Below, one piece after another: positions 29,837 to 62,511 of a DNA stretch of 64,000 bases. This DNA is from Acidobacteriota bacterium (GTDB taxonomy: Bacteria; Acidobacteriota; Thermoanaerobaculia; Gp7-AA8), in NCBI GenBank assembly GCA_019244185.1, contig JAFATB010000014.1:680637-744636 (forward strand), in the 5' to 3' direction. Each line of letters begins with the position of its first letter. Position 1 is the first letter of the stretch. The notes beneath the pieces were generated by a model. That model had not been told where the DNA came from. It searched no databases and saw only the letters and a program-made list of their open reading frames with translations. A program made the translations under genes and the position numbers.

Positions 29837-30640
29837 TCATTCGCGCACGATCTGGTACGCGATGAGAATGACACCGACGACAAACAATGCACATGCCGCG
29901 GCGACTGAGGGGATCTCCGGCGGCCGATGGCCTTTGACAATTTCGTACAAGCTCGAAAAGGCCCCGCTCAGGAATGCGCCGCCGAGCATGCCGCAGAGGG
30001 CGTGCAACTTACGGCGTCGTTGCCGCGCGATGTTCTTCACCGCCATCGTTACGTAAAAACCCGAGATCGCAGGCGCGTCGTGCCGACGCATCACGCCGAC
30101 GCATTCCATGAGGAGGTCGTGAATGTACCGGTCGACAGAATCATGAAAGGCGCTGAGGCCGTCCGGTGCAAACGGCGAAACCGGAAGATTGCGCAGCTGC
30201 TTACGCGCCGCTTCGGTGATCGTGGGATTCGTGATGCCAAGAGTCATGTCCCTGCTTCCTTCCTGTGCGAGACCCGCCGCTCCGATTGCGCGCCGGTAGA
30301 CGTCTTTCGTCTGCCGCTCCAGTGCTTTCAGCATGGTCGAAGCGCTTCGTCCAGGCGTGTTCGCGAGCAACCGCGCGACCGCCGTGATGAAGCCGGCGAG
30401 AATGGCGATGAGGCTCACGGTGAGCTCGCGTTCGAATGTGAGGGCGAACATGCCAGCGACCGAGACCGCCCCGGTAAGTGCGGTGGCGATGGTGACCGTT
30501 ACGCTCAGGACGAACCGTGACGCCGACGAATCACTCTCAATCATTTTCTCGACGCGGCGATAGACCTCAGCAGCACTGAGATTGTTCGCGCGCAGACGAC
30601 GAAGCTGCTCCAGGAGCTCTTCCAGCGTTTTTCTGTTCAC
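29837..30640 (-). CDS. Membrane protein: N-terminal 2-TM module, candidate histone fold, 2 C-terminal TM helices (possibly two genes; internal ATG 30247)
   Basis: GTG 30640 overlaps the upstream stop (GTGA). PFAPDGLSAFHDSVDRYIHDLLMECVGVMRRHDAPAISGFYVTMAVKNI fits histone alpha2-L2-alpha3, followed by GMLGGAFLSG and ALFVVGVILIAY TMs. Confidence 0.65.
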   Translation of the reverse strand: MNRKTLEELLEQLRRLRANNLSAAEVYRRVEKMIESDSSASRFVLSVTVTIATALTGAVSVAGMFALTFERELTVSLIAILAGFITAVARLLANTPGRSASTMLKALERQTKDVYRRAIGAAGLAQEGSRDMTLGITNPTITEAARKQLRNLPVSPFAPDGLSAFHDSVDRYIHDLLMECVGVMRRHDAPAISGFYVTMAVKNIARQRRRKLHALCGMLGGAFLSGAFSSLYEIVKGHRPPEIPSVAAACALFVVGVILIAYQIVRE

Positions 30641-31488
30641 ACGCGTCCCTCGAGAGATTCCTGGTCGGCCTTGTAGTCGAGCAGCCGCTGCGGGACCGTG
30701 GTTCCGAAGCGATAGTTGGACGGGTTGTCGCCGCAACGATCGAGTACGGCACGCCAGAAGGTCTTCAATTCATGGACAGGTGGACGAGCCACGCGCTGTC
30801 CCGACGTCGGCACTGTCGGCAGAATCGCAGTGACACTTGCACCGTTTAGTTGCAGCAACGATACGGGCGGGAGCGCGCGGGCCGCGGCGATTTCGCGTTC
30901 GATGGAGGTCTTCTGCAACTTCACCGGCTTGTGCAGCAGCGAATCGCCGCAGTCTTCGAGCATGTCGCTGACCACCACGATCTCGGCAGCGGTGCCTGGT
31001 TCCGTAATTTCTTCCGCTTTGCGGAATGCGCCTGAGACGCATGTGTGATTCCGGCCGTCGGCCGGCCCGGCAAGTAATGTTCTCAGTTTGTCCGCGACGT
31101 CCCGGCTCCATTTCGCGCGCGCCATATCGACGGCTACGGCATCGCTCGTAGTCTGAATCTGCGGCAGTTGGTCATTGAAGACGGCTCCGGCGCGCTGCAC
31201 GTCTTCAAGCAGGGGAAACACGTACAAGTGAGCGCCTGTCGGTAGGAGACCGATGATCGTTTGTACGTTGGCAATGACCGACGCCTGTTCCTGCGGCGTA
31301 AGACTGCGGGTGACGTCTGCAAAGACGATGAACAGACGCGGTGATGCCGGTGTTTCGACCGATCCGGCCGAGGAGGACGCGGACGGTGCCATCGCTGCGT
31401 TGCTGCCGGTTGATGTCGTCGGCTGCTTACCGCCGCAAGCGATGACGACGGCGACGACGACGAGGCTCAGCGCGGATCGCCGAATCAC
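30637..31488 (-). CDS. Lipoprotein with vWA-like domain
   Basis: Lipobox VIAC; FIVFADVTRS (DxTxS), HTCV and IVVVSDMLED MIDAS-like elements. Confidence 0.7.
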   Translation of the reverse strand: MIRRSALSLVVVAVVIACGGKQPTTSTGSNAAMAPSASSSAGSVETPASPRLFIVFADVTRSLTPQEQASVIANVQTIIGLLPTGAHLYVFPLLEDVQRAGAVFNDQLPQIQTTSDAVAVDMARAKWSRDVADKLRTLLAGPADGRNHTCVSGAFRKAEEITEPGTAAEIVVVSDMLEDCGDSLLHKPVKLQKTSIEREIAAARALPPVSLLQLNGASVTAILPTVPTSGQRVARPPVHELKTFWRAVLDRCGDNPSNYRFGTTVPQRLLDYKADQESLEGRV

Positions 31489-32708
31489 GATGACGTTCTC
31501 TCCTGGACTGGTGCTGCAGTTTCGCTGAAGTGACGTTCGGCGACGCCGAGCCTACGTTTCAATGCGACCTGAATGCGCTCGTGCAACCGTCGCCCGTCAT
31601 GCAACGTCTCCGGGACGAGAACGCCTCTCAGGAATCCTTGTTCGTAAAGGCTCATGGCTACGGCCTCAACGCGTCCTGCGTCGAGTTGAGCTGCCGCGGC
31701 AGCCTCGTTTTCGGCGCTTTTCACGAGGGCCTCGGTCTTCCGCGCTTCGGCCATCAGCTCGTCCGCAGCGGATCGCGTCTCTCGACAGCTCTTTCTCAGG
31801 ACGCGATACCGATTGATGTTCTGAATGCGACTCCAGCCGACGGACGCACAGATGCCGCCGATGATCGGCAGCGTCAGCGTCAGCAGCACGAACGACATTC
31901 CGGCGTCTCTCTGCATCTTTGCGGTAAGGCCGACGACGTCGGCGGCCATGCCGTTCGTATCGGTTGCCGTCGCGCGCCGCGCTTCCTGCAGCGATTTAAC
32001 GCCGGTGCGCAGTTCCGCGAGGTAGTAGAGATTCCACGTGACGAGCGTAATGAGCCCGACGACCATGACGCCGGACACGATGCGCATCCAGAGCTTGTGC
32101 TGTAACGCCGGCTTGAAGAAGAAGTCCGCGACGAATTTGAAGAAGAGACCCAGCGCCGCGATGCCGATCGCGAAGGCGAGCGGTTCCCACATGGATCTCC
32201 AGTCCAGCCGGATCGAGTCGAGGTTTGCGAGTTTCGCGTAGTTCGTTTTGATCTCGAGACCATCGGCGGCGAGAAGCGAAAGCGGCAGATCTGCAATCCA
32301 AAGGATTGCCGCTACGACGCAGTAAACGACACCCAGAGGCCAGGAAAAACTTGCCGGACTGTCGAGACGGTGGCGCTCGAGCGCGATGAATCCCTCTTCG
32401 ATCCGTACGGCGTCGCCGCGCGCCCGGTCGGCACGCTCGACGGCCGTGTGCATATCGGCTTTCGCCAGTTCGACGCGATGCGTCGTCGCTGCGCGTACTG
32501 CAGCGCACCACTGCTCGGCGCGATGACGGTAGACCGCTGAAATCTGCGGTGCGCGAACGCCGAGGCGACCGTCCGTCCAGCCCCGACGGTACTCCGCTTC
32601 ACCGTACGAAGTCGGTAGCGGTTCACCCGAACTGTCATCGAAGCGTTCGTTGGTGTCGTTGCCTGCCAGTGGCCATGCGGAAACTTCATGTACTGTGTTG
32701 TCCGTCAT
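31485..32708 (-). CDS. Multi-pass membrane protein flanked by coiled coils
   Basis: About four TM helices with helical, charged flanks; YRRGW and YEQGF motifs near the two ends; ATGA overlaps. Confidence 0.75.
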   Translation of the reverse strand: MTDNTVHEVSAWPLAGNDTNERFDDSSGEPLPTSYGEAEYRRGWTDGRLGVRAPQISAVYRHRAEQWCAAVRAATTHRVELAKADMHTAVERADRARGDAVRIEEGFIALERHRLDSPASFSWPLGVVYCVVAAILWIADLPLSLLAADGLEIKTNYAKLANLDSIRLDWRSMWEPLAFAIGIAALGLFFKFVADFFFKPALQHKLWMRIVSGVMVVGLITLVTWNLYYLAELRTGVKSLQEARRATATDTNGMAADVVGLTAKMQRDAGMSFVLLTLTLPIIGGICASVGWSRIQNINRYRVLRKSCRETRSAADELMAEARKTEALVKSAENEAAAAAQLDAGRVEAVAMSLYEQGFLRGVLVPETLHDGRRLHERIQVALKRRLGVAERHFSETAAPVQERTSS

Positions 32709-34678
32709 TTTTTCGTCCCTTCTGGGAGCGGAGGGGGAAGGGGTATCGCAAACCGGAGCGAGCGTGTGGCCGCCTCCTGAGAGAGAATCAGGAGCCGCAG
32801 TTCGTTCGCTCCTTTTCCCGCCCGCGCGATCAGTTCGGCGTCCTCGGCGGTGGACTCATCGACCCGTCCTTGCGTCTCTGCCAGTTCGCGGCGAAGTTCC
32901 TTTCGCCGTTCGAGTGAGGTCTCCCGTTCGATCTCTTCGATCTTGTTCGCGATTCGTTGTTTGCTCTCCTCCAGGCGCGAAATTTGACGTGACAGCTTCG
33001 TGATGGCCTCGAACAATTCGGGCGGCAAACCAGCGTCGAACGCCGCGAACTCGAAAGACGCAGTGAGCTGGGAAGTCTTCTTCCGCGATAACGGCCATAG
33101 GCTCACGGTGTACCAGTGTTTCTTTCCTGAGTTGCCGTTCGACATGCCATACCCGTTGCCGAGGCTTAGCGCGCGTTGAAACTTTTCAATACGCAAACGC
33201 TCGCGCGCGTAATCGGCGTCGATCTGGATCTGCCGTTGCAGCGCACGGCGGGAAAGCTGTGGTTGCTCGGGGCCGTACGTGTAGAAGCGGGTGTCAGCTT
33301 CAATTTCGCGCAAGCGCTCCTGCGTTTTGTCCACGTCCTTGTAAACACCTTTGTAGACGAGACCGTAGGCCAGCGACAGAGAGCCGAGAAGCATGAAAAG
33401 CATCCAGAGACCCCACCGCGCATCGCGCGCGAGGTACGCTGCCAACGTCACTGCGGCGATCAGGGCCAGCGGCGCGACCGCGAATTCCCATGAACTGCTG
33501 AAACTGCGGCCATCGTTCCGCGGCTCGATGATTTTGATCGCATACATCATTGTGACCGCGGCGGTGAGCATTGCGATCGTGCTTCCGATCGCCGTGTTGG
33601 TGAGGGTCGACAGTAAGTGACGGAAAACGCCCTGCTCCGTGCGGCCTGCGGCAACGAATGCTACGATCATGCATCCCGCGAGAACGTAGGGTAGCGACGC
33701 GATCAGCCTGATGTATGAATGGCGCGTGATGTCGGCCTGGCCGAAATGCAGGCCTGGAATGGACGTCGAGCGCCGTTCGAGTTTTTTCCATGAGTCGTAG
33801 AAACGGTGCATCAGCCAGTCGACACCGATCGTTGCGAATAGGAGTAAAAGGACGCATGCGAAAAGCAGCGTGAAAGGCGTCTCAAATCGTGACAGCGACT
33901 GGTTCGGTAAGTCCGCGAATGATCGGGCTGTCGTCAGCACCCAGTCGATGGTGAAGTCGTCATCGATCAATTGAGCAAATACTGCTCCGATTGCCGGAAC
34001 GGAGGCGTATCCGACCCACGCCAGGAATCCTGCGAGAGTGCGGGTGATGAGGGCCGCGCTCAAGCGAGACGATCGCTGCTCGACTTCCTCTGCTAGTGTG
34101 CGCAGTTTCTCCGTCCGCGCTTTGAGCTCTTCGAGCTTTCGGGCACGACTCTCCGCCGCTGCCTCCCACGACTTTTTCCGCTCCTGAAATTCTCTGAGCG
34201 CGTCGCCATGGAGCCTGTCGCGAGCTTCCTGGCGCTGAATGTCGAGCTGCTGGATTTGAGCTGCAACTAGGGCCTGTGCGTTGGCCAACCGTTTCTCGTT
34301 GAGCTCTCGTTGGGCCCCGTCGAGTTGCGCCTGAAGGCCATCGAGCTCGCTGTCAATCCGCGCCGCCTCCGCGGAGTGCTCGCGGAGTTCCTCGGCGAGC
34401 GGCGTATGGACGGCCAGTTCTTCGTGAATGCGAGCCGCGTTTTGTAGAAGTTGTGAGCGTTCCCGATCCCCTCGAGCGATAATTGCAGCGCGTACGTTTC
34501 CCTCGATCGTCCTGACCCATACATCCATTTCGCGTCCATCCGACCCGCCATCGGGGAATGCCGCGCGGACGGTCGCTGCGTCGAGGACATCGTCGACCGT
34601 TACGAGGCCGGACGCCGGCCGTAGCAAGAGCACGGGCGTGCTTGCCGCGTCTTCTTTTGCGTCATCGTCAATGTCCAT
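32705..34678 (-). CDS. Coiled-coil, multi-TM membrane protein
   Basis: Long N- and C-terminal coiled coils around ~6 TM helices; ATG 34678 preceded by GGAGGAGAGG. Confidence 0.75.
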   Translation of the reverse strand: MDIDDDAKEDAASTPVLLLRPASGLVTVDDVLDAATVRAAFPDGGSDGREMDVWVRTIEGNVRAAIIARGDRERSQLLQNAARIHEELAVHTPLAEELREHSAEAARIDSELDGLQAQLDGAQRELNEKRLANAQALVAAQIQQLDIQRQEARDRLHGDALREFQERKKSWEAAAESRARKLEELKARTEKLRTLAEEVEQRSSRLSAALITRTLAGFLAWVGYASVPAIGAVFAQLIDDDFTIDWVLTTARSFADLPNQSLSRFETPFTLLFACVLLLLFATIGVDWLMHRFYDSWKKLERRSTSIPGLHFGQADITRHSYIRLIASLPYVLAGCMIVAFVAAGRTEQGVFRHLLSTLTNTAIGSTIAMLTAAVTMMYAIKIIEPRNDGRSFSSSWEFAVAPLALIAAVTLAAYLARDARWGLWMLFMLLGSLSLAYGLVYKGVYKDVDKTQERLREIEADTRFYTYGPEQPQLSRRALQRQIQIDADYARERLRIEKFQRALSLGNGYGMSNGNSGKKHWYTVSLWPLSRKKTSQLTASFEFAAFDAGLPPELFEAITKLSRQISRLEESKQRIANKIEEIERETSLERRKELRRELAETQGRVDESTAEDAELIARAGKGANELRLLILSQEAATRSLRFAIPLPPPLPEGTKK

Positions 34679-34753
34679 CCTCTCCTCCGCCGGACGGCAC
34701 TCTCTGCCTGCTACGGACACCAGCCATTTCGCGAATGTGAGATGAACGCTGAC

Positions 34754-36502
34754 TCATGTTCGTGGACGGCGCGTGAGTCCTCGCACGAGCAGGCAGGCAG
34801 CGGCCGCGGATATGAAGATCGCAATCGCGATCCACGTCACTGGCGGCGTTTGTTCGAATGCGACATCCGCCGGCGTAAAGCAGACGTTGTAGGTCTCAGG
34901 GAGCAATGCGCGCTCCGCCGAGAGATGTAGGCGATAGCGTCCGGGTGCCGCCGCGCCCTCGATGTGCGCCTCCAACACGCCGTTGCGCACATGGAACGCG
35001 GCGCGGTTCGGAGTCAGGTGATCCTCACGATAGACCGCAAGACGGAGCCACTGCGGCGCCGGTCCCGTATCCAGTGAGTACCAGTCCACGCGGCGGCGCG
35101 CTTCGTCACGGCAATCGATCGCGATCCGCGTGGGCCATGTCCACATGCCCATGGCGACGGTGCTGGTGCGGAAGGCACGGACGCGACAGTCGATCCGCTC
35201 GGCAGGTGTAACGGTAAAGCCCGACCAGTGGTCGTGAAAGATCGCTAGTTCGCGGCCGTTGATATTCCGCGTGGTGATCCGGACATCGGTCCAGTAGCGG
35301 CCGGCGCGATGACAGGCGATGGAATGTGCAACGATGAACGTAGCCGGTGCGGACGCACGCACTCGCACCATGGCCGTGGGAACATGCGCGCCTGCTGGCG
35401 TCACCAGCATTAGCGACAGAGAAAGAGGGTATTCCGGCAGCTCGAGCATCGGCGTGCCATTGCTGTCGACGAGTCGGTACGCGATACCGACCTCGTCATG
35501 CTGCCGCGGAGCGGTGCCGACGGACGGATACAGAAGCATCCCGCGCGCGAAGAACTGTTGAGAGAAGATCTTCACGTGCAGGCGCCCGGCGGGTACGCGG
35601 AACAACCATTGGCCCGGCGCCGGACGATGGACGGTCACCGCGACGAGTGTGTCTCCCAGATGTACGCGTTCGACGCCCGCACTACTGTCGTTCAGCGGCC
35701 ACAACGTGTCGGGCGCGTAGATGTCGACCCGTCCCGTGGGCTTGGATCGCGAGACGATGTCGAACACAACCACATCAAGATAGGGCGCTACAACCAGCAC
35801 CTCGGCCGATTCCGATGCGGCAGTCGTCGTATCGCTTTCGCGCGACGGAGCGCCGAGGATCGTTGTGAAGACGGAGTGGATTGCCCGCACCGCGGTGATG
35901 CGGTTGCGCTGTAAGGCGTGTACACGGTTGTGAGAAACGGATTGCCATAAACCTCGAGGCACACCGCCATGGATGCCATTGAGCAAGAAAACATCGATCG
36001 TCGCCGGCCCGAGATCGGCGGCCGTCATGCGCAGCAACTCACATGAGACACATCGTCCGCCGGCGGGACGACCGTTGGGAATGCCATCTGTCACCAGTAC
36101 AACTGCGCGGCGCCTTAGCGGGTCGTCCGGCAATGACGCCAGCAAGTCGCGTGACGTTTCGAACGCGCCGACGAGGTTTGTCCGTCCGAGGTGCGTTCGA
36201 GCGGTCGCATCAATGACGCGCCGGATCCCTTCGTGGTCTCGAGCGACGACCGTGAAGGGGAGGTCGATGCGTACGGTCGTACCGAAACTGACCAATGCGA
36301 GCCGGTGCATGAGGTGCGATGTCGTCGCGCTGTGTGCGAGCAACTCGGCGGCGACGATGCTGACCGTGGAGGAAATACCTGCAGAGTCCCTCGTGCTCGC
36401 TGACCGATCGATGAGCACGAGCAGATCGACACCGGCATCCGCGTACACGGCCCGACTGACCAGGATCAGCGCGAGCAGTGTCGGGACGACGAACCTGGAC
36501 AC
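34754..36502 (-). CDS. Exported vWA domain protein with C-terminal TM anchor
   Basis: Signal peptide; DLLVLIDRSAS, GRTNL, VLVTDG MIDAS; beta-rich region; terminal TM plus basic tail. Confidence 0.85.
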   Translation of the reverse strand: MSRFVVPTLLALILVSRAVYADAGVDLLVLIDRSASTRDSAGISSTVSIVAAELLAHSATTSHLMHRLALVSFGTTVRIDLPFTVVARDHEGIRRVIDATARTHLGRTNLVGAFETSRDLLASLPDDPLRRRAVVLVTDGIPNGRPAGGRCVSCELLRMTAADLGPATIDVFLLNGIHGGVPRGLWQSVSHNRVHALQRNRITAVRAIHSVFTTILGAPSRESDTTTAASESAEVLVVAPYLDVVVFDIVSRSKPTGRVDIYAPDTLWPLNDSSAGVERVHLGDTLVAVTVHRPAPGQWLFRVPAGRLHVKIFSQQFFARGMLLYPSVGTAPRQHDEVGIAYRLVDSNGTPMLELPEYPLSLSLMLVTPAGAHVPTAMVRVRASAPATFIVAHSIACHRAGRYWTDVRITTRNINGRELAIFHDHWSGFTVTPAERIDCRVRAFRTSTVAMGMWTWPTRIAIDCRDEARRRVDWYSLDTGPAPQWLRLAVYREDHLTPNRAAFHVRNGVLEAHIEGAAAPGRYRLHLSAERALLPETYNVCFTPADVAFEQTPPVTWIAIAIFISAAAACLLVRGLTRRPRT

Positions 36503-42117: not shown

Positions 42118-42173
42118 GGTCGATTGGCTCCCGTGCATCTTGGACACGTCGGACCAGACAGATGTGAGACGCG

Positions 42174-53413: not shown

Positions 53414-53417
53414 GGCG

Positions 53418-53454: not shown

Positions 53455-54156
53455 TCAGTTGAAGAAGCGGATGAATGGATCGTCGCTCAAAAGCCACCCA
53501 CCTACCACGCGTGTCGCCCAGATTGCTGCGAGCAGCATGACGGCGATGACCGTTGGGGCGAAACGCTGCGGAATGTGCGCGAGCTGCGTGCAGCCCGTGA
53601 ACAGAATCGACAGCATGTACGTCCATGCGAAGAGGCTCACCAGCGCCACCGTCTGGAAGTTCGCAATGCCCAGCAGCGCCGCGATGATGAACACGATACT
53701 GAATGGTTGAAGGGCCACCCCGCACGACAGCAGATCTGCTCCGAACGCGCCGTCGGCGCGGAACGCCTTTCGAGCTCCGGCGCTGACGCCCGCCATCGCG
53801 GCAAACGGCACGAGTCCGACGACCGTCATGCCGAGCAGCAGCTTGGCGATGCCGTTGAACCCGATGTGCGACGCGGTGATCGCGCTCGCGATCCCGACGG
53901 CTAGCGCAAATGCGACGCCGAGAGCGATGCCCGCCGCGCGGGCCCGCTCCTCGCCGAGCGTCGCGTACGACCTCGTCAAGCCGCCGATCGGATCCGAGGT
54001 GATCTGGCGAATCGCCGTGAATGCATCACCGGACGCCGACTGAATGATTCGCCGCGCATCGGCCGCTGAAAACACCGGCTGATTGGATTTGCCACAGTGC
54101 ACGCATGCGGCCAGTGTGCTGCCTTCGTTCGCCATCCCACAATTTACACAGAACAT
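53455..54156 (-). CDS. Zinc-ribbon plus five-TM (Yip1-like) membrane protein
   Basis: MFCVNCG...CVHCG followed by ~5 TM helices; GAGGAGG RBS. Confidence 0.75.
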   Translation of the reverse strand: MFCVNCGMANEGSTLAACVHCGKSNQPVFSAADARRIIQSASGDAFTAIRQITSDPIGGLTRSYATLGEERARAAGIALGVAFALAVGIASAITASHIGFNGIAKLLLGMTVVGLVPFAAMAGVSAGARKAFRADGAFGADLLSCGVALQPFSIVFIIAALLGIANFQTVALVSLFAWTYMLSILFTGCTQLAHIPQRFAPTVIAVMLLAAIWATRVVGGWLLSDDPFIRFFN

Positions 54157-54166: not shown

Positions 54167-54862
54167 TCAGATTTGTGCCGCGGGTGCCCCTGTGCCACAA
54201 TCCGCACAGAATCGGGCACCACGGACGAGTGGTGCATGACAGGTTGCGCAGGCGGGCCGTGAATCGGCTCCATGCTTCCGGCGCGCGATCAGAAGCGCCA
54301 ATCCGGCGATCGTCGCCACGATGATCAGAGTGCTTGCCGCGCGTGAAAACGGAATGGCGTAGCCCCCTGCGGTGATATGGATTGAGCCGCCGGTCGTCGC
54401 ATCCCAGCGCACTCGTGAGCCGTCGATCTCGCCGTGGTCGCTGGCGCTGATCTTTCCCGGCATCGTCACGGCAATATGCCGTTTGAACGAGCCGTAGCCG
54501 ACCGGCTGCAGCGTTGCATCCAGCCGGTATTCGCGTCTCAGCCATCCCATTTTGGTGATCGTCAGTGCAAATCGGCTATTGCTGTCGTTGAGAGCCGTGA
54601 CGTCGGTAAAGTCTTTGCGGAGAATGGCGAAGCGATCTTTCCCTGCTCGTCCTTCTTCCACGACCGTAAAGCCTTCTTTTGCGGCATCCGTCCGGACGGT
54701 TCCCAAGTCGCTGGCGAGATCCTCCGGGATCGTGATCTTCAATCGGTAGGTGCCGGAGCCGTCGGCATTGATACGCAGGTCCTCATCGATCGCGCACGCG
54801 AAGAAGAGGAGAGAAAGCAAAGCGGCGAATGCTGCGACGCGTGACGGTCTCGCATGGTTCAT
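54167..54862 (-). CDS. LppM/DUF3153-like lipoprotein with TM and C-terminal zinc ribbon
   Basis: Lipobox FFAC; L.INADGSG, VTMPGKI...G....V.W; TM; CATC...FCADCG. Confidence 0.75.
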   Translation of the reverse strand: MNHARPSRVAAFAALLSLLFFACAIDEDLRINADGSGTYRLKITIPEDLASDLGTVRTDAAKEGFTVVEEGRAGKDRFAILRKDFTDVTALNDSNSRFALTITKMGWLRREYRLDATLQPVGYGSFKRHIAVTMPGKISASDHGEIDGSRVRWDATTGGSIHITAGGYAIPFSRAASTLIIVATIAGLALLIARRKHGADSRPACATCHAPLVRGARFCADCGTGAPAAQI

Positions 54863-55012: not shown

Positions 55013-56815
55013 ATGCTCGGTCGCCGTATCGGTAGTTGGATTCTCGAAAAGGAGATTGGCCGCGGCGGAATGGGCGCGGTCTACAAGGCCCGGCACTTCT
55101 CGTTGAGCACGGAAGCCGCGGTGAAAGTGTTGTCGCCGGGGTTGGAATCCGCCGAAGGATTCCGGCAGCGCTTCCGGCGGGAAGCCGAACTGCAATCGCA
55201 ACTCCGCCATCCGAACATCGCGCGAGTGCTCGATTACCTCGAGCAAGACGGTCATTGGTACCTGGTGATCGAGTATCTGGAGCGAGGCAGCTTGTCGGAT
55301 CGGCTGGCCGACGGGGAGGTCATCCCGCGAGCCCAAGCTATCGCTTGGATGCGAGAAGCGCTGGCCGGCCTCGGACACGCACACGAACGCGGGATCGTTC
55401 ATCGCGACATCAAGCCCGCGAATCTGATGTTCAACGCGCGAAATGAGATCGTAGTCGTCGATTTCGGGATCGCGCGGGGCGATGCGGCGCCCGGGCTGAC
55501 GGCCACCGGAGTCACGGTGGGAACTCCGGCCTACATGAGTCCCGAGCAGATTGTGACGCCGAACCAGGTTGATGGCCGCGCCGACATCTATTCGCTTGGG
55601 ATCGTACTGTACGAACTGCTCGCGCACCGGCGGCCGTTTGCCTCTGATTCCGATTTCGCGATCCTGCAGGCTCACGTCACACAACCGCCGCCGCCGCTGC
55701 GTTCTGTCGATCCGTCGATCGGACCGGATCTCGAGGCAATCGTCGCGTGTGCGTTAGCGAAGAAGCCCAGCGATCGTTTTCCGAATTGTGAATCGTTTTC
55801 CGCGGCCCTCGCGTCGGCCGACCTTCGGGCCTCCGCGGGAACAGTTTCCATGTCAGCGCCGATCGCGGGCGGCACTGTGCATCAATCGCGCTTCTTCGTT
55901 GCTCCGACGGACGCCTCTCGAGGACTCTCTCCCGCGGAAATGCGCGATCGGAAGCGGCGCTCCCTTCAGCGCCGGCTCGTCGCAGGAGGAGCGTGCACGC
56001 TCGCCGTTGCGGGGATCTTCGCGGTACGGCAGGCAGAGTGGAAAGCGGAACAGCGACAAGAGCCAGTCCTGGGTACGGTGACAACCGTCGGCACGCCGGC
56101 GAGCAACGAAACAAACTCGACGGCCGCTAGCGCGCCGGCAAAGTACGAAGCAACCTCGATCGCCGTAAAGCCGGCGGCTCCCACACATCCCTACGGTGCT
56201 GTGTCGCGGCCAGACATTCATCTCCAGCAGGTGATGGCCCCGCCACCGTTCACTCCGGACTCACCGACGCAATCGCGGCCGAACATACCGCCGGTTCCAG
56301 TGGCGCCGCACGTGGAGCCGCTGCCGGAACGGCCACGGATCGCCGTCATCGGAGCCGGCGGTGACGCCGTGATGGCGGCCGCGCTGGAGCAGGAGTTCGA
56401 GCGCCGCCTGTCCGCTTATGACGTTGCGGACGAGCACGGCGATCCGGCGGTCGAGGAGCTCCTTGGCCGCAAGAACGTCGCGGCCAACGCGCTTGGCGCA
56501 CAACTTCTCAGTAGCGGCTTTCACGTACTGGTTCTCATTCGCGTTGAAGAGGGCGACCATCGCAGCCTCAGTCTCGAAGGCCAGTCGTTGTCGATGAAGG
56601 CGGCGCGCCTGCGCCTCAATGCCTATCTCCTTCCGGTGAACCGCCCCCTCGGCTCGGGATGGACGGAAGGCGTTGAATATTCCGAACTGTCGACTTCAGA
56701 GAAAGCGCGACAAGCGTTTATTGGAGCCACGGCGGATCTCCGACAGGCGATCGACCAGAACTGGAGCCAATTGCGTGCGGCAAATGCATCCCGCAATGCT
56801 GGAGCCGTGAGATGA
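55013..56815 (+). CDS. Transmembrane Hanks-type Ser/Thr protein kinase
   Basis: IGRGGMGAVY, AVK, HRDIKPAN, DFG, GTPAYMSPE, DIYSLG; TM helix; Pro-rich linker; C-terminal alpha/beta domain; GGAGGAGG RBS. Confidence 0.95.
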   Translation: MLGRRIGSWILEKEIGRGGMGAVYKARHFSLSTEAAVKVLSPGLESAEGFRQRFRREAELQSQLRHPNIARVLDYLEQDGHWYLVIEYLERGSLSDRLADGEVIPRAQAIAWMREALAGLGHAHERGIVHRDIKPANLMFNARNEIVVVDFGIARGDAAPGLTATGVTVGTPAYMSPEQIVTPNQVDGRADIYSLGIVLYELLAHRRPFASDSDFAILQAHVTQPPPPLRSVDPSIGPDLEAIVACALAKKPSDRFPNCESFSAALASADLRASAGTVSMSAPIAGGTVHQSRFFVAPTDASRGLSPAEMRDRKRRSLQRRLVAGGACTLAVAGIFAVRQAEWKAEQRQEPVLGTVTTVGTPASNETNSTAASAPAKYEATSIAVKPAAPTHPYGAVSRPDIHLQQVMAPPPFTPDSPTQSRPNIPPVPVAPHVEPLPERPRIAVIGAGGDAVMAAALEQEFERRLSAYDVADEHGDPAVEELLGRKNVAANALGAQLLSSGFHVLVLIRVEEGDHRSLSLEGQSLSMKAARLRLNAYLLPVNRPLGSGWTEGVEYSELSTSEKARQAFIGATADLRQAIDQNWSQLRAANASRNAGAVR

Positions 56816-58836
56816 CCGTCACGAATATCGACGTTCGCGGCGACGCCACTCTGCTCGTGGGACGGACGCCCGACAACGACATCGTCATCAATCATCCGCT
56901 GATGTCGCGCAACCATGCGCGTATCGCGCGCACTGCATCGCGGTGGAGCGTTACGGATCTCCGCTCGACCAACGGCACATTCGTCAATGGCCGCAGAGTG
57001 CAGGCAACGGCCGCGCTGGCCGTCGGCGATGTCATTGATCTCGGTGCCAGTCGCATCGTGTTGCTCGATGACCAGCGCCTGGAGCGACGCGACTATCGCG
57101 GCAACACGCGCATCGAGGCGAGTAACGTCGCGATTCGCGCTGGCAGGCGGGTACTGATGGAGGGCGTCTCACTGACGCTCTTACCGTCCGAACTGGTGGC
57201 CCTGATGGGCCCGAGCGGAGCCGGCAAGACGACGCTCATGACGGCACTCAATGGGTATCAACCGCCAAGCAGCGGCCGCGTGCTCTTCAACGGGCAGGAT
57301 CTTTATGCGAATTTCGATCGATTCCGTCTCGGCATCGGCTACGTGCCGCAGGACGACATCCTCCACGGCGAGCTTACCGTCGGAGAGGCGTTGTATTTCA
57401 CCGCCCGCCTTCGCCTCCCGAACGATACGAGCCGCGGGGAGATTGCGCGATGCATAGACGCGGTTCTTCAACAGCTGGGGATTGCTCACATCCGCGATTC
57501 GATCATCGGCACGCCTACGCGGAAGGTGGTGAGCGGTGGGGAACGCAAGCGCGTCAACGTCGCCATGGAGCTATTGAGCGACCCGCCCGTGCTGTTCCTC
57601 GATGAGCCGACGTCCGGCCTTTCGTCGGAAGACGCCCTGTCGCTGATGCAGCGGTTACGGGAACTGGCGCGGGAGGGGCGCACAATTCTCCTCACCATTC
57701 ATCAGCCGAGCCGCGAAGTTTTCCGGCTTCTCGACAATCTTGCGGTTGTTTCGCGCGATGTTTCGAGCGCCGCGCCCGCGCGCCTCGTGTATTACGGTTC
57801 TGCTTATCCGGAGGCAATTCGCTTTTTCAATCCCGGCCGTGAGGTCGGAGACGAACCATCACCGGATGGCGTCCTGCGTGGTTTAACAGCACGGTCCACG
57901 GATGAATGGCTGGAGTCGTACCAACGGTCCGCGATCAAAACCCACTATGTGGATGATCGGGCGGGGCGAACGGCGGCCCAAAATCCGGCACAGACGGAGG
58001 CGCCACGCCGGCCCTCGGCGTTGAGACAGGCACTGATGTTATTGCGCCGCGGCTTCACGCTGAAGGCACGCGACGGTTGGAACAGCGCGATTCTCTTTGC
58101 GCAAGCGCCGATCATTGCCTTTCTGCTCGTAGCCGTATTTGGCGGAGCCAGTCGCGCTTCGGACGCGGGTTCTGCAATTCGTGCAGGGACAGCGACAACG
58201 ACGCTCCTCTTTTTGATGAACATCGCCGCGATGTGGTTCGGCTGTTCGAACGCCGCGCGCGAGATCGTCGCCGAATGGGCGGTGTTCAGCCGCGAGCGCG
58301 TCATCGGTTTGCGTCTCGCGGCCTACGTCACCGCAAAGCTCGGCCTACTGAGCGTGCTCGGACTCGCACAATGTCTGCTTCTCCTGACAATTGTCCATCA
58401 CGGCTGCCGGATCGATACTTCCGCGACACATCTTCTCCTGTGCCTCTTTCTGAGTACCTTGATTGGTACGTCACTGGGTCTGCTCATCTCGGCGGTGGCG
58501 CGGAGTTCAGAAGTCGCGATCTCCCTGGTGCCGCTGGCAATTCTTCCGATGGTCGTTCTGGGCGGGATGATGCAGCCGCCGCACGCGATGGAGCAACCTG
58601 CGCGGACGCTGGCGCAACTCGTTCCCTCCCGCTGGGCATTCGAGCTGGCCATTGGGCTCGAAGCGAAACAGAGGCTCGCGCGGGCCGATCACGCCGGGAC
58701 GGATCTGGCCGAACCTTATTTCCCGACCGCCGGCCGCTCGTCCGCTTCGGCCGACGCCACTGTCCTGCTGACGAATGCGGTGGTGCTGTTGGCCGGGACG
58801 CTTGCGGTGCTGCGATCGCGGGATGTCCATCCTTGA
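56812..58836 (+). CDS. FHA-ABC ATPase-ABC2 membrane fusion transporter (Rv1747-like)
   Basis: GR...SRNHA...DLRSTNGTFVNG FHA; GPSGAGKT, VSGGERKR, FLDEPTSG, TIHQP; about 6 TM helices; ATGA overlap with the kinase. Confidence 0.93.
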   Translation: MTVTNIDVRGDATLLVGRTPDNDIVINHPLMSRNHARIARTASRWSVTDLRSTNGTFVNGRRVQATAALAVGDVIDLGASRIVLLDDQRLERRDYRGNTRIEASNVAIRAGRRVLMEGVSLTLLPSELVALMGPSGAGKTTLMTALNGYQPPSSGRVLFNGQDLYANFDRFRLGIGYVPQDDILHGELTVGEALYFTARLRLPNDTSRGEIARCIDAVLQQLGIAHIRDSIIGTPTRKVVSGGERKRVNVAMELLSDPPVLFLDEPTSGLSSEDALSLMQRLRELAREGRTILLTIHQPSREVFRLLDNLAVVSRDVSSAAPARLVYYGSAYPEAIRFFNPGREVGDEPSPDGVLRGLTARSTDEWLESYQRSAIKTHYVDDRAGRTAAQNPAQTEAPRRPSALRQALMLLRRGFTLKARDGWNSAILFAQAPIIAFLLVAVFGGASRASDAGSAIRAGTATTTLLFLMNIAAMWFGCSNAAREIVAEWAVFSRERVIGLRLAAYVTAKLGLLSVLGLAQCLLLLTIVHHGCRIDTSATHLLLCLFLSTLIGTSLGLLISAVARSSEVAISLVPLAILPMVVLGGMMQPPHAMEQPARTLAQLVPSRWAFELAIGLEAKQRLARADHAGTDLAEPYFPTAGRSSASADATVLLTNAVVLLAGTLAVLRSRDVHP

Positions 58837-58861: not shown

Positions 58862-59791
58862 ATGATGACGATCAACGGTTTTCGGCTCCTCTCTGCAGGT
58901 TTTTGTTTCGCACTGTTCCTCGTTGTGGGCTCCTCGTTCGCCGAGGCGCCGCGAGGGAGTCTTCGCTACAGCGTGGTCGTTGCGAAGTTTGAGAACAAGA
59001 CCAGCAGCGAACGTTCATTGGGTGACGAATGGGCAACACTGTTGACCACTAAACTCTATGAAAGTGGTCATTTCATCGTCGTATCGCAGACGGAGACGCA
59101 GTTGCAGGCATTGAAGGAACAACTGCGCGTCGGCTCCGGAATCACCGCCCAAGGCAAGAAATCGGCTGTACGTGGCCAAATGACGCCCGCCCAGCTGCTC
59201 GTCGAAGGGATCATCACGGACTTCAAGGAAGCGGCCGCCGATCAGGGTGGCGGCGTGGGCATCGGAAAGTTCCGCGTCAACGCGGGACGCAAGACGACCG
59301 AGATCCGGGCCACGATGCAGATCGTGGACACCTCCACGGGAGCGGTGGTTGCGGCGCACAACTTCGTCGGCGTTGCGCAGGCACGGTCTTTCTCCGTTGC
59401 CCAGTCCGACCGCGGAAACGCCGTGAGCATGGGACGCGATGACAACGTGCAGGCGGCATTTGAGAAAGCGATCGAGGAAGCGATCCCTTGGATGGTGAAT
59501 CAACTCCCGTCCATCCGCTGGCGCGGATCCGTCGTGAAAGTGGACAAAGACCGGATCATCGTAAACCGAGGATCGCGTGAAGGTGTGAGCGCAGGTGATG
59601 AATTCATCGTCGGCGAGTCTGAAATTCTGCGCGATCCCGATACGGGCGAAGTGCTCGACGAGGTCGTGCACGAACGCGCGCGCATCAAAGTTATTCAGGT
59701 CAATGAACGTACGGCGGTTTGTACGGTCGTGACCGGAACGGCGAACCAGATCGTCGAACGAATGGGCATCCTGTACAGCAACGAGAGTTGA
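58862..59791 (+). CDS. CsgG/HfaB-like exported protein with FlgT-C-like beta domain
   Basis: Signal; VVAKFENKT, L..SG.F.VV, AQLLVEG.ITDF, IVD.STG.V, NRGS..GV..GD.F.V...DPDTGEVL. Confidence 0.82.
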   Translation: MMTINGFRLLSAGFCFALFLVVGSSFAEAPRGSLRYSVVVAKFENKTSSERSLGDEWATLLTTKLYESGHFIVVSQTETQLQALKEQLRVGSGITAQGKKSAVRGQMTPAQLLVEGIITDFKEAAADQGGGVGIGKFRVNAGRKTTEIRATMQIVDTSTGAVVAAHNFVGVAQARSFSVAQSDRGNAVSMGRDDNVQAAFEKAIEEAIPWMVNQLPSIRWRGSVVKVDKDRIIVNRGSREGVSAGDEFIVGESEILRDPDTGEVLDEVVHERARIKVIQVNERTAVCTVVTGTANQIVERMGILYSNES

Positions 59792-59793
59792 TC

Positions 59794-62511
59794 ATGCCCA
59801 ACCTGAAGGCATTATCGCTCGTCGCCTTGGTGACGTGTCTCGCCCTCGAAGCCCGTGCGGACTGGCTTCCTCAGCCGGATTCTGCGCCAATGCAGAAGAT
59901 GGGCGGCCTCGTGTCGATTCCAGGCGCGCCGCTGCCTCCAGTCTCTCCAGATGTGGTGCGCATGACGATCCGGTGGTTTGAGCCGGTGCTGGCGGGTCTG
60001 CGATTGTTCGGCGACACGCCGGCCGTCGGGCGCGGTTGCGGGTATCTCGCAACCTTGTATGCCGCGGTTGGCGACGATGCGAAAGCGGAGCAGCTTTTCG
60101 ACGAAGCGGAAGCCATTCTGAACAAGAGCGGTGCTGCGCCGCTGTATCGGGCATGGGTCGAGAACAATCGCGGGATGTGGCACAACCAGTCCGGCCGGCA
60201 CGACAAGGCGATCAAGTGTTTTCGCAATGCTGTGGAGCTTCTGCATCCGGAGAAAGAGGAGACTCGCGAACCGCGGCTCATCATGCTGCAGAACCTGGGC
60301 ACCGCGTATTGGCTTTTGGGCGACGTGGACCATGCAGAGCTGACCTTCGGTGAAGCGATCGATTCACTTCGACCCGCCGGAATGGAGCACAGCCGCACCG
60401 CACAGATTCTGCGCGCCGATGTCGAAATGCTCGATGCCTCGATTGGGGATTTCGTTTCGGCGCGGTCGGTCGGCGAGAAACTCCTGGAGGAGCCGAATCT
60501 CGACCGGACGGTTCGTTTCCAGGTGCTCATGTCTCTCGGTTACACACTCGCCTCGCTTCGGAACTTCGATCAGGCAGTGAGTCGCCTTACGGAGGCACGT
60601 TCGCTCACAGCGGATCGATCGGCGGAGCGCCTGATGGTCTTGATGAACCTGGCGACGGTGTACGCCACCGCCGAGGACTATGACCATACAGACCCGCTCG
60701 CGCAGGAGACGCTGGTGCTTGCCCAGAAGCTCAACGGTGAGAACTCCCGCATGGCTGCTGCTGCCATGACGCTTTGCGCACTGACCGCGCTCAGCCGGAA
60801 TGAACTAGTCGCAGCGGATCGATTGCTGACGCGCGCCATCGCCATTCTCCAGCCGCAGCCCGGCGATGATGAACTTCGCATTCGTGCGATCCGTGAACTG
60901 GCGCTCGTCGCCCAATTTCGCGGTCAGACGGAGCGCGCGACCACATTGGGCCGGCAGGCGCACGAGCAGACCAAGCAACAACTGCAGCGCATCCTGGCCT
61001 TCGGTTCCGAGATGCAGCGACTCGCTTATCGAGCGCAGGCCGCTCCGTTCGATCAACTGGCGAATCTCGGCGATCCATCACTGCTCGCCGATGCGGCGCT
61101 CACCATGAAAGGTGTCGTCCTCGACTCGCTGCTGGCGGATCGCGCGCTGGCGCGCAGGAGCAATTCGCCGGAAGACCGCGATCAACTCGACCGCATCAGC
61201 GAACTGAAGGTCCGGCTGATGGAGGAGACCTCCCGCAGCAGCGCCGCCCCCGAGTCACTGCAACGCGAGCTGGTCAGAGAAGAGACTGCATTGGCACGCC
61301 GTCTGTCGCGCGAAGCCCCGCAGCATCAGGTGCCCATCAGTCTTCCGGCCGTGCAGCGCACGCTCGGCCCACAGGCGGTGCTTGTCGAGATCATCCGCTA
61401 TCAGCGATATACGAGCCGTGCGAAAGCGGTGTGGGCATATGGCGGCGTGGTCATTCCCCAATCCGGCTCCGCATCATGGGTGCCGCTCAGCGATGCGGAG
61501 CCGATCGACGCCGCGATCAGCAAACTAACTCGCCGGGTTCAGGGCCAGTCACGAAGTGCGACGTCCCAGGAGGTCAACGACGCGCTCGCTGCCTCTGATG
61601 AAGAGATGCGAAGCACGCTACGCTCCTTGTATCAGTCGCTTTGGGCGCCGCTGGTCCGTGCGTTGCCAGAGGGTACGCAACAGGTGTTCCTCAGCCCGGA
61701 CGGTGCCACGTCGTTTCTCCCGTGGGCAGTCCTGCTGGACGAGAAAGACCGTTTCGTTCTCGAAACCTGGCAGCTGACGCAAGTCGGCTCCGGCCGAGAC
61801 CTGCTGCGACCGGCGCCGCCGTCGTTCGCTCACACGGTCGTTGCGTTCGCCGACGGCAGAGGAGACCTGATCTACAGCCGTCGTGAGGTGGAGGCCATTG
61901 CGAAGATCAGCGAGTCGCACGGCTGGGCCGCCACGATACTAGCCGGCGAAGTCGCGACCGAGCATGAATTGGTACGACAACGTAATCCGGGCGTTCTGCA
62001 CTTTGCGACGCATGGCGGTCAGCTCGACGACGATGCCTCGCAGGCGATCGCCAATCGGCTCAACCGTAATCCGATGTACCGCGGCTTCATCCTGCTGGCC
62101 GAAGGTGGCGAGACTCTGAAGCGTTGGAGCCGCGGAGAGACGGTCCCGGCTGCGGACGATGGCATTCTGACCGCCGAAGAAGCGAGCGGGCTCGATCTCA
62201 GCCACACGTGGTTGACGGTTCTTGCCGCGTGCGACACCGGCGCCGGCGACGTCAGTGTCGGCGAGGGTATCCTTGGCCTCCGCCGCGGCTTCGCGCTCGC
62301 AGGAACGCAGTACCTCCTTTTTTCGCTTTGGCCGATCGACGACGCGGCGACCGCCGCGTTCATGCGAGCCTTCTATGCACGACTCTTCGCCACCGGCGAC
62401 GCCGCGGCCGCATTCCATGAGACGCAACGAGACGAGCTTCTCCGCTGGAAAGCGTCCGGCCAATTAACGCGAACAGTTGAGATGGCAGGAGCCTTCGTAT
62501 TGACCAAGTGA
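59794..62511 (+). CDS. Exported TPR-CHAT protease
   Basis: Signal peptide; TPRs; KG..LD, SPDG....LPW, LHFATHG, DGILTAEE, LAACDTG, GLRRGF..AG, SLWPIDD, GAFV. Confidence 0.92.
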   Translation: MPNLKALSLVALVTCLALEARADWLPQPDSAPMQKMGGLVSIPGAPLPPVSPDVVRMTIRWFEPVLAGLRLFGDTPAVGRGCGYLATLYAAVGDDAKAEQLFDEAEAILNKSGAAPLYRAWVENNRGMWHNQSGRHDKAIKCFRNAVELLHPEKEETREPRLIMLQNLGTAYWLLGDVDHAELTFGEAIDSLRPAGMEHSRTAQILRADVEMLDASIGDFVSARSVGEKLLEEPNLDRTVRFQVLMSLGYTLASLRNFDQAVSRLTEARSLTADRSAERLMVLMNLATVYATAEDYDHTDPLAQETLVLAQKLNGENSRMAAAAMTLCALTALSRNELVAADRLLTRAIAILQPQPGDDELRIRAIRELALVAQFRGQTERATTLGRQAHEQTKQQLQRILAFGSEMQRLAYRAQAAPFDQLANLGDPSLLADAALTMKGVVLDSLLADRALARRSNSPEDRDQLDRISELKVRLMEETSRSSAAPESLQRELVREETALARRLSREAPQHQVPISLPAVQRTLGPQAVLVEIIRYQRYTSRAKAVWAYGGVVIPQSGSASWVPLSDAEPIDAAISKLTRRVQGQSRSATSQEVNDALAASDEEMRSTLRSLYQSLWAPLVRALPEGTQQVFLSPDGATSFLPWAVLLDEKDRFVLETWQLTQVGSGRDLLRPAPPSFAHTVVAFADGRGDLIYSRREVEAIAKISESHGWAATILAGEVATEHELVRQRNPGVLHFATHGGQLDDDASQAIANRLNRNPMYRGFILLAEGGETLKRWSRGETVPAADDGILTAEEASGLDLSHTWLTVLAACDTGAGDVSVGEGILGLRRGFALAGTQYLLFSLWPIDDAATAAFMRAFYARLFATGDAAAAFHETQRDELLRWKASGQLTRTVEMAGAFVLTK

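Follow-up and report, generated by a model that had tools for sequence, protein, structure and literature searches.

A composite, foreign island with caspase-family protease, ECF sigma factor and Tubulin_2/vWA genes in an Acidobacteriota genome

We analyzed a 64,000-nt stretch of DNA (the window) from an Acidobacteriota bacterium (assembly GCA_019244185.1, contig JAFATB010000014.1; genome labeled G000). Positions 29837 to 62511 of the window (the island) hold 19 genes; the original prediction, made from the sequence alone, had listed 17 and had proposed that they form a single undescribed system. The island proved to be foreign and composite, and nine of its genes, designated core A, recur together in rearranged order in other genomes. 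These nine encode a sigma factor of the extracytoplasmic function (ECF) type with a candidate anti-sigma factor, two CHAT proteases (CHAT1 and CHAT2), a caspase, a protein of novel type (g2), a tubulin-like GTPase and two vWA proteins (vWA5 and vWA7). Domain assignments are Pfam matches above cut-off, and the NCBIfam and PADLOC profile libraries also were used. The core genes are listed below (MIDAS, metal ion-dependent adhesion site; ORF, open reading frame; TM, transmembrane).

52108..52680, plus strand: ECF sigma factor (Sigma70_r2 43.8 bits, r4_2 47.3 bits), divergent from CHAT1 over 77 bp
52667..53413, plus strand: candidate anti-sigma factor; about 95 cytoplasmic residues, TM helix at 100-118, about 130 periplasmic residues; 14-nt overlap with the sigma gene
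48698..52030, minus strand: CHAT1, a 1110-aa protease with a lipoprotein-type signal and a C-terminal CHAT domain (PF12770, 175.7 bits); first gene of the minus-strand run
47649..48698, minus strand: g2, 349 aa, beta-rich, partner of CHAT1-type proteases; TGATG junction with CHAT1
45329..47590, minus strand: caspase (Peptidase_C14, PF00656, 81.5 bits), predicted to be exported from an N-terminal signal-like stretch
42174..45314, minus strand: TPR-CHAT2, a protease predicted from sequence to be exported (CHAT PF12770 241.5 bits, TPR_12 80 bits), catalytic dyad kept
39490..42138 (longest ORF to 42270), minus strand: vWA5 (PF00092, 46.7 bits), MIDAS DNSSS
36512..39484, minus strand: Tubulin_2/FtsZl1-type GTPase, 990 aa, predicted cytoplasmic (PF13809, 85.3 bits versus a cut-off of 27)
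34754..36502, minus strand: vWA7 (VWA_2, 39.0 bits), MIDAS DRSAS

CHAT1 opens a run of 11 minus-strand genes from 52030 to 29837 that ends with four membrane-associated genes, g8 to g11, described below. The original prediction had reported overlaps or short gaps throughout this run, and the ORF map and junction sequences agree. The junction between CHAT1 and g2, read from the sequence, is TGATG. After g2 the junctions are 58 nt, 14 nt and 35 nt (with the ATG at 42138 as the start of vWA5), followed by gaps of 5 nt, 9 nt and 33-75 nt, by ATGA at g8/g9 and by GTGA at both g9/g10 and g10/g11. The likely starts of vWA5 and of three plus-strand genes described below (those for a kinase, a CsgG-like protein and CHAT3) lie inside their longest ORFs. 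Eight of the 11 domain labels proposed for the run were confirmed; those of g10 (vWA) and g11 (histone-like) were not. The sigma pair diverges from the run, as had been claimed, and the kinase operon does not follow the pair directly, because two minus-strand genes that the original prediction had missed, x and y, lie between them. Terminator-like sites were not enriched (18 versus 15.9 +/- 4.1 in shuffles), and sigma-70-like sites were not above shuffles.

All four CHAT domains of the window retain a His and a Cys, which we take to be the caspase-type catalytic dyad. The caspase has intact SGHG and DSCHSG motifs, and its orthologs in G401 and G402, two Thermoanaerobaculia metagenome-assembled genomes (MAGs) that are 87% identical in DNA, share 46 to 48% identity with it. 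No Pfam match was found for its C-terminal region of ~450 aa or for the N-terminal 800 aa of CHAT1. The CHAT1 orthologs of G401 and G402 are 1110 and 1104 aa long and carry an LAGC lipobox, and CHAT1 is probably exported. Hydropathy and inspection by eye placed N-terminal signals on CHAT1, the caspase, CHAT2, CHAT3, both vWA proteins, g10, y and the CsgG-like protein, and placed the tubulin-like protein, the sigma factor and the kinase domain in the cytoplasm.

The GGSG and CGGTGAG motifs of the tubulin-like protein are invariant in 26 of 26 aligned relatives. About 85 residues beyond these loops lies a conserved GNxxDDD motif, which we assume could be the equivalent of T7 in FtsZ. The sequence has no match in the PDB, and its C-terminal 595 aa have no Pfam match. 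Hydropathy analysis of vWA5 suggested a signal peptide, the vWA domain, a beta-rich ectodomain, a TM helix at about residue 700 and, in the cytoplasm, a tail of ~160 aa; vWA7 appears to have the same order of signal peptide, vWA domain and ectodomain, ending in a C-terminal TM helix and a short tail. We read both as putative integrin-like single-pass receptors with metal-binding periplasmic ectodomains.

The island is foreign and composite. GC content at third codon positions (GC3) is 0.69 to 0.77 in island genes versus 0.88 to 0.92 in four flanking genes, and bulk GC falls from 0.66-0.70 to 0.59-0.64 in the island. Homology of the left flank to the congeners G707 and G708 stops at window positions 29789-29792, just past the stop codon of an ABC ATPase gene. 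The insertion site is variable, since the next 8 kb beyond this flank in G707 have no match in G000. A search with the tubulin-like protein gave no match in any of five congeners. None of these statements depends on the unpublished genome G706. At the island borders there was no direct repeat of at least 11 nt, no tRNA and no integrase. A tRNA-Lys(ttt) and a tRNA-Glu(ttc) occur at window 2306-2482 (plus strand), but at a distance of 27 kb from the left border they have no association with the island.

Relatives of the tubulin-like protein are rare. A search of a 5.8-billion-cluster collection, in which only the 8000 candidates with the most shared words were scored, returned 37. The subfamily was found in none of 400 other genomes sampled from the phylum of the window and in none of 299 other genomes of the class of G401. 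A scan of one genome per species yielded four close loci (L082 to L085) and two distant full-length ones (from Hoeflea and a gammaproteobacterial MAG). Linkage was assessed by tblastn with the window proteins, for which 160 Tubulin_2-like loci were fetched.

These comparisons indicate, at the level of sequence, that core A is one linked system that has been rearranged across genomes. All nine core genes are present in G401 and G402, where one block is inverted relative to the window: g2 and CHAT1 are transcribed in one direction (g2<-CHAT1) and, divergently, ECF->anti-sigma->caspase->CHAT2->vWA5->tubulin->vWA7 in the other. The order is CHAT2-vWA7-vWA5-tubulin in L005 (99.99% identical to L082), CHAT-caspase-caspase-vWA5-tubulin in L085, and vWA5-tubulin-vWA7 followed by a convergent ortholog of CHAT3 (46% identity) in L004. 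CHAT2 orthologs (42 to 47% identity) lie directly upstream of vWA/tubulin genes in L005/L082, L083 and L084, and in L085 a CHAT2-like gene of 35% identity lies two caspase genes upstream of vWA5. The vWA5 gene is colinear with the tubulin gene in 8 or 9 of the 10 close loci and in both distant full-length loci; vWA7 orthologs occur in L002, L004, L005/L082, L083 and L084. The protease and tubulin-vWA blocks co-occur, in line with the original prediction, in every related lineage with a long enough flank (the window, G401/G402, G403, G404 and L004).

CHAT or caspase genes were detected in 6 of the 160 Tubulin_2 loci, all of them among the 10 close loci (none in the other 150). The 10 close loci amount to eight distinct sequences, because L005 equals L082 and L006 equals L007. 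Those without CHAT are L002 and L003 (both of which have no upstream flank) and L006/L007, whose 5-kb contig has neither vWA (vWA5 included) nor CHAT beside a full-length tubulin relative of 46% identity. The linked genomes have 9 to 20 CHAT genes each, and a rough calculation puts adjacency by chance within 3 kb at ~2% per genome. The arrangement of the island goes beyond chance, because its GC3 differs from that of the flanks and the set of core genes is found again in other genomes.

In G401 a second gene for a putatively exported caspase (L083 ~14900-16476, plus strand; Peptidase_C14 30.7 bits) and one for a small secreted protein lie directly after vWA7, with a dienelactone-hydrolase-like gene and an ABC-2 transporter further downstream.

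The ECF gene was identified by its two sigma domains and by TIGR02937 (82.6 bits versus a cut-off of 42.9), the sole NCBIfam match above cut-off in the island. Its orthologs adjoin CHAT1 in G401 and G402 and also in a paralogous locus of G000 itself. The candidate anti-sigma factor has no HxxxCxxC zinc motif. Its NCBIfam anti-sigma matches are weak and below threshold (20.7 bits versus a cut-off of 100), and orthologs of it (36 to 39% identity) come after the ECF gene in G401, G402 and contig C4 of G000.

Downstream of CHAT1 lies g2, which has the same length, 349 aa, in its G401 ortholog. It has no signal peptide; its hydrophobic N terminus corresponds to two conserved strands, a beta-hairpin, in the AlphaFold2 (AF2) model, which has a predicted local distance difference test (pLDDT) score of 94.7 and a predicted template modeling (pTM) score of 0.93. 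The family comprises 302 representative clusters at E<=1e-3 (124 at E<=1e-10), and none of 65 members has a Pfam match. The sequence has no PDB match. Comparison of the whole model with solved structures gave nothing at E<=1e-3 with Foldseek, nothing at Z>=2 among 48161 chains in a wide VIA search and a best Z of 2.2 in a further PDB structure comparison; separate domains were not folded, and a known sub-fold is possible.

The position of g2 is highly regular. In 22 of 23 cases, a g2-family gene lies directly 3' of a CHAT gene. These comprise all 12 cases in G000 and G401 to G404, where both genes are on the same strand, and 10 of the 11 cases from eight additional genomes of the phylum sample; in the 11th, it is two genes away. 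The family is present in 9 of 401 genomes of that sample, and the CHAT proteins it accompanies are similar to CHAT1 over most of their length. On this synteny and on the model, we consider the g2 family to be a new one, an obligate CHAT partner apparently without a known fold. By analogy, g2 could be a cytoplasmic inhibitor of the CHAT enzyme or an effector that the protease activates. Bacterial gasdermin operons contain caspase-like or CHAT proteases, and the staphopain/staphostatin pair consists of a secreted cysteine protease and a cytoplasmic inhibitor; in both, as in CHAT1-g2, a protease gene is coupled to a small gene for a substrate, effector or inhibitor. PADLOC gave no gasdermin match in the island, an absence from the match list that is not proof.

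The paralogous ECF/CHAT1/g2 locus of G000 is native (GC3 0.8-0.9) and is conserved in genomes G040 and G070. It reads DUF4236<-caspase<-g2<-CHAT1 and, divergently, ECF->anti-sigma->vWA->kinase-TPR, with no tubulin gene; its vWA protein (863 aa) is thioredoxin-like plus vWA. On another contig of G000, C3, a CHAT1-type protein has an HxxxCxxC anti-sigma motif fused to its N terminus, along with a TM helix; this is the architecture of DdvA of Myxococcus xanthus. The positions are as follows.

G000:C4 ~106-123 kb: native paralogous locus (L175 6027-19404, L176 3440-6754)
L168 1530-4877, minus strand: fused CHAT1-type gene of G000:C3
L168 401-1351, minus strand: distant g2-family gene that follows the fused gene

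The plus-strand genes at the far end of the island form a second unit, module B.

55013..56815 (ORF opens 54854), plus strand: membrane Ser/Thr kinase (Pkinase, 175 bits), first gene of module B
56812..58836, plus strand: fusion of FHA and ABC-2 transporter (FHA 76.4, ABC_tran 109.9, ABC2_membrane 94.1 bits)
58862..59791, plus strand: CsgG/HfaB-like protein, predicted exported (CsgG 69.3, FlgT_C 33.1 bits)
59794..62511, plus strand: TPR-CHAT3, a protease predicted to be exported (CHAT 168.9 bits, plus TPR), dyad kept; it closes both module B and the island

Module B is an autonomous four-gene operon. In genome G508 it is free-standing, with identities of 59, 71, 62 and 51% for the kinase, FHA-ABC, CsgG-like and CHAT3 proteins, and no related gene lies within 9.6 kb upstream or 3 kb downstream of it. 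In G404, where the kinase ortholog is 53% identical, module B follows CHAT1-g2 on the same strand. CHAT3 orthologs (46 to 51%) come after the CsgG-like gene in both genomes. The kinase has a hydrophobic stretch after its kinase domain and then ~250 aa. The claim that the island is one system therefore stood in part: the core is linked and the ECF/anti-sigma pair travels with it in G401/G402, and the whole is not indivisible, given the autonomy of module B in G508.

The CsgG-like protein has 1066 relatives at E<=1e-10. Three metagenomic contig sizes (16015, 13921 and 266561) are common to the match lists of the tubulin-like and CsgG-like proteins, which suggests that the two genes are co-located on further contigs. 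Relatives of 41 to 46% identity are common, occurring as single copies in 72 of 300 genomes of the class of G401. We considered these relatives as a marker of module B and rejected them. In 30 CsgG-like loci from that class, FHA-ABC and CHAT genes adjoined the CsgG-like gene in only one, that of a 62-66% identical protein, and not in the 41-46% relatives.

The separability of these units bears on the explanation that the genes are neighbors and not partners. The island would then be a mosaic of independent units at a variable site with no functional cross-talk: the ECF/anti-sigma/CHAT1/g2 cassette, an FtsZl1-vWA operon with its own proteases, module B and orphan membrane genes. Several observations fit. 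Module B is alone in G508, and at E<=1e-10 the genomes G401, G402 and G403 yielded no ortholog of the CsgG-like protein; no tubulin gene accompanies the ECF/anti-sigma/CHAT1/g2/caspase set of G000:C4, G040 and G070; the Hoeflea and gammaproteobacterial outgroups keep the vWA-tubulin pair only, with no proteases; and the site itself varies between G707 and G000. We nevertheless regard this explanation as somewhat unlikely. In G401/G402 an inversion has not separated the nine core genes, with the ECF/anti-sigma pair on the same strand and directly upstream of caspase-CHAT2-vWA-tubulin-vWA. CHAT2 orthologs abut vWA/tubulin genes in three distinct lineages, with the 35% CHAT2-like gene in a fourth. 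Finally, module B or CHAT3 is found again beside core genes in G404 and L004, and the three shared contig sizes point the same way.

The content of module B also raises the possibility that the island builds a surface structure. The vWA proteins would then be adhesins or matrix anchors, the caspase and CHAT enzymes would be maturation or sorting proteases, the CsgG-like protein and FHA-ABC transporter would export a polymer under control of the kinase, and the tubulin-like protein would be a cytoplasmic positioning scaffold. A CsgG/HfaB family member and LpoB/FlgT-like domains, the proximity of an FHA-bearing ABC-2 exporter to a membrane kinase, large beta-rich vWA ectodomains and the common, single-copy CsgG-like relatives are consistent with this. 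So are the lack of known defense genes near the G401 locus and the membrane remodeling that has been proposed for FtsZl1 operons (PMC2875224). Such a role seems quite unlikely to us, however. The core occurs without module B in G401/G402, a gene set that is very rare and on foreign DNA would be unusual for a structural envelope function, and three to four caspase-family proteases per locus that look active from their sequences exceed the need of simple maturation. Furthermore, no curli or holdfast subunit genes were among the Pfam matches of the island. The CsgG domain (69.3 bits) is present, and, unlike in curli loci, it is accompanied by no other curli family among those matches.

We compared the island with described systems. 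It has the features by which FtsZl1-vWA operons are recognized, namely, a Tubulin_2 domain, GGxG/GGTG-type loops and adjoining vWA genes with intact MIDAS. Membrane remodeling was proposed for those operons by Makarova and Koonin in 2010 (PMC2875224), and in the accessible text of that paper they share with the island a divergent tubulin/FtsZ-like protein of ~1000 aa beside a vWA protein that keeps its MIDAS and has a signal or TM segment, as well as a nearby protein kinase and many membrane proteins. A P-loop GTPase and an OmpA-like protein are described there as frequent and not obligatory; the island has a match to neither, and its kinase is in a separable operon. Unlike FtsZl1 operons as described (PMC2875224), the tubulin-vWA operon of the island has around it an ECF switch and three or four caspase-family proteases, predicted from their signals to be exported. 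The original prediction had included FHA among the genes of those published loci, which did not check out: FHA, CHAT and caspase have no occurrence in the accessible part of the paper (PMC2875224). Tubulin_2 proteins are mentioned only as a divergent outgroup in what is accessible of Santana-Molina et al. 2023 (PMC9871819).

A tubulin and two vWA proteins, one with an extracellular vWA domain, also occur together near the membrane in the predicted GAP1-N2 GTPase-centric conflict systems of Kaur et al. 2020 (PMC7159879), a paper in which peptidase cascades and caspase-like effectors figure as themes of regulation. Unlike these systems, the island has no GAP1 GTPase with zinc ribbons by Pfam or NCBIfam and no extra P-loop, the sole true Walker A motif of the island being in the ABC transporter of the FHA-ABC fusion; the zinc ribbons of x and y come without a P-loop. 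The GAP1-N2 systems were reported from Firmicutes and Actinobacteria, and "sigma factor" does not appear in the accessible text (PMC7159879).

The closest parallel for the sigma switch is DdvS/DdvA of Myxococcus xanthus, where the periplasmic TPR-CHAT region of DdvA was proposed to act as its own site-1 protease before RseP (PMC11506125). There, the ECF sigma factor has a single-pass anti-sigma partner, and the His-Cys dyad of the periplasmic CHAT domain is intact; the island has an ECF sigma factor with a candidate single-pass anti-sigma factor and a CHAT protease that keeps its dyad and is predicted to be exported. The island differs in that protease and anti-sigma factor are separate, the HxxxCxxC motif is missing and g2 is an extra partner; its linked genes are caspase, vWA and tubulin genes, not CBASS (cyclic-oligonucleotide-based anti-phage signaling system) or CRISPR (clustered regularly interspaced short palindromic repeats) genes (PMC11506125). 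Because the genes are separate and the anti-sigma candidate lacks HxxxCxxC, we treat the island as a split analogue of DdvS/DdvA and not as a member. In the type III-E craspase, the TPR-CHAT protein Csx29 cleaves Csx30 and thereby relieves inhibition of an ECF-like sigma factor (PMC10028731). Unlike the exported proteases predicted for the island, craspase is cytoplasmic and is guided by RNA through Cas7-11 (PMC10028731). No Cas match was found in the island with Pfam or PADLOC, and CHAT2 scored 45.1 bits versus a cut-off of 300 for the Csx29 model.

Taken together, we propose that the island is a composite, horizontally acquired, envelope-spanning signaling and effector system of nested modules, a reading to which we tentatively assign a probability of roughly 0.4. 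Every biochemical step and the biological role are what we infer from the observed gene content, topology features, motifs, linkage, rarity and foreign composition. The innermost unit would be a two-gene cassette for an exported lipoprotein protease of the CHAT1 type and for g2, its obligate partner; this cassette, placed divergently from the ECF gene and its single-pass anti-sigma candidate, would make up a split version of the DdvS/DdvA switch. A periplasmic cue would lead the CHAT protease to clip the ectodomain of the anti-sigma factor (the site-1 cut), intramembrane proteolysis of the anti-sigma factor would follow, and the sigma factor would be freed. The output of the switch would be the operon caspase - TPR-CHAT2 - vWA - Tubulin_2 - vWA. 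The exported caspase and CHAT2 might then process the vWA receptors or their ligands, and the change would be relayed across the membrane to the cytoplasmic tubulin-like GTPase, whose GTP-dependent assembly at the inner membrane might remodel or damage that membrane. The end result could be growth arrest, vesiculation or death upon attack. The operon of module B and g8 to g11 would be add-ons outside the core.

In its most specific form, this proposal describes an outside-in machine: a cascade of caspase-family proteases in the periplasm would switch two integrin-like vWA receptors, these would signal through the inner membrane to the tubulin-like protein, and its GTP-driven assembly would bring about membrane remodeling or suicide of the cell. 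The split ECF switch would arm the machine, and g2, as a protein of new fold, would be the cytoplasmic keeper of the CHAT enzyme or an effector that this protease activates. We hold that version to be an unlikely elaboration.

Several points weigh against the proposed signaling system. The weakest is g2, which the model leaves unexplained; since g2 has no signal peptide and CHAT1 looks exported, the two may sit in different compartments. The identity of the candidate anti-sigma factor is based on position, topology and sub-threshold matches. No common ECF-type promoter motif was present in the CHAT1-ECF spacers of five loci, which are short (40 to 77 bp, and up to 150 bp among those of G401, G402 and G040); a TAAAAT-like box lies just 5' of the ECF start in the spacers of G401, G402 and G040. 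Among distant CHAT-g2 cassettes, none of nine loci had an ECF or caspase gene nearby within ~9 kb, save one ECF gene 9 kb away, as far as profiles built from three or four sequences, with their limited reach, can tell. All topologies and signal peptides were judged by hydropathy and by eye alone. Polymerization of the tubulin-like protein is unproven, because the T6-H7 elements could not be identified in FtsZl1 in the accessible account (PMC2875224). Finally, PADLOC gave only generic kinase, caspase and ABC matches in the island. Because these matches are generic, the neighbors of the G401 locus are ordinary genes and the paralogous locus is native and conserved, housekeeping envelope signaling fits as well as defense does.

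At the position of the TAAAAT-like boxes, the window has TAATGAT. Such a box may be the -10 element of a transcript with a short leader.

The same search results bear on a narrower role, anti-phage abortive infection, in which the periplasmic proteases would sense phage and the tubulin-vWA proteins or a protease-activated g2 would kill or arrest the cell. This we consider unlikely. Its sporadic distribution on a foreign island would suit a defense function, as would the precedents for CHAT and ECF proteins in defense (DdvA/DdvS, PMC11506125; craspase, PMC10028731) and the classification of tubulin-vWA-GTPase neighborhoods as conflict systems (Kaur et al. 2020, PMC7159879). Additionally, a TIR_2 gene (L006 4549-5013, plus strand, 59.2 bits) lies ~550 bp downstream of one tubulin relative. 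Against these, the TIR link is a single case, and PADLOC gave no system-level match, in keeping with the prediction of an undescribed system. Neither the island nor the surroundings of the G401 locus showed restriction, CBASS, CRISPR or toxin genes, and the whole g2 model matches no solved structure, pore formers included.

To our knowledge, no experimental function of Tubulin_2/FtsZl1 has been reported since its description in 2010. Conserved synteny ties one Tubulin_2 subfamily to caspase-family proteases with intact dyads, a proposed ECF switch and putative MIDAS receptors, which offers a route to the function of a divergent prokaryotic tubulin. By analogy with DdvA, the idea of a CHAT protease that gates an ECF sigma factor would recur here in split form, joined by g2, an obligate partner whose structure has no precedent and whose family of ~300 sequence clusters is a good target for structural and biochemical work in itself. 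If the system acts as a death or defense pathway, it would widen the roles of caspase-like proteases at the bacterial envelope; if the outside-in version is true, one pathway of a prokaryote would connect caspases with integrin-type receptors and a tubulin cytoskeleton. Full-text searches found no paper on the combination of Tubulin_2/vWA with CHAT, caspase and an ECF switch, as the original prediction had supposed; the supplementary locus lists of PMC2875224 and PMC7159879 may hold such loci. What is new here is the picture of nested modules, the autonomy of module B, the foreign origin with its variable site and g2 as an obligate CHAT partner.

The remaining island genes are x and y, between the sigma pair and module B, and the last four genes of the minus-strand run.

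53455..54156, minus strand: x, N-terminal zinc ribbon and five TM helices; no Pfam match
54167..54862, minus strand: y, LppM lipoprotein (PF21946, 31.2 bits versus a cut-off of 27) with a TM helix and a C-terminal zinc ribbon
32705..34720, minus strand: g8, coiled coils (predicted cytoplasmic) flanking five or six TM helices; no Pfam match above cut-off
31485..32708, minus strand: g9, four TM helices with helical regions predicted to be cytoplasmic; no Pfam or NCBIfam match; ATGA overlap with g8
30637..31488, minus strand: g10, lipoprotein with a VIAC lipobox; no Pfam, NCBIfam or PDB sequence match
29837..30640, minus strand: g11, three TM helices, last gene of the run; residues ~131-210 may form a histone-like fold

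By hydropathy, the zinc ribbons of x and y are both on the cytoplasmic side of the membrane, and no homolog of either gene was found in the related loci. Nor did g8 to g11 have a match in any fetched tubulin locus. One of the 11 relatives of g8 is on a 40683-nt contig, and the closest relative of the tubulin-like protein (72% identity) comes from a contig of this same size; g8 to g11 are accessory and, through this contig match, common only to that closest relative. The designation of g10 as a vWA lipoprotein failed in its domain: it has the lipoprotein-type signal but no vWA match in Pfam at E<=0.01. That of g11 as histone-like remains a lead. An Atlas model of its residues 131-267 (pLDDT 0.56) has neighbors that include TAF/histone-fold clusters, with TM-scores by row of 0.5 to 0.8; its own AF2 single-sequence model (pLDDT 47.9) is too poor for a fold assignment, and it has no PDB sequence match. 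Histone-fold proteins with TM domains are a minor category in the accessible text of Schwab et al. 2024 (PMC11390915).

G000 has 10 CHAT genes in all. One of them, the fourth TPR-CHAT gene of the window, lies outside the island at 9675-12176 (plus strand; CHAT 195.5 bits, dyad intact, GC3 0.88) and is followed by genes for an HlyD-like protein and an ABC ATPase (12256-13560 and 13570-14274). Contig C4 ends where the window does, and its last 46 bases (window 63955-64000) are exactly those with which C7 of the same assembly begins; the two contigs probably abut.

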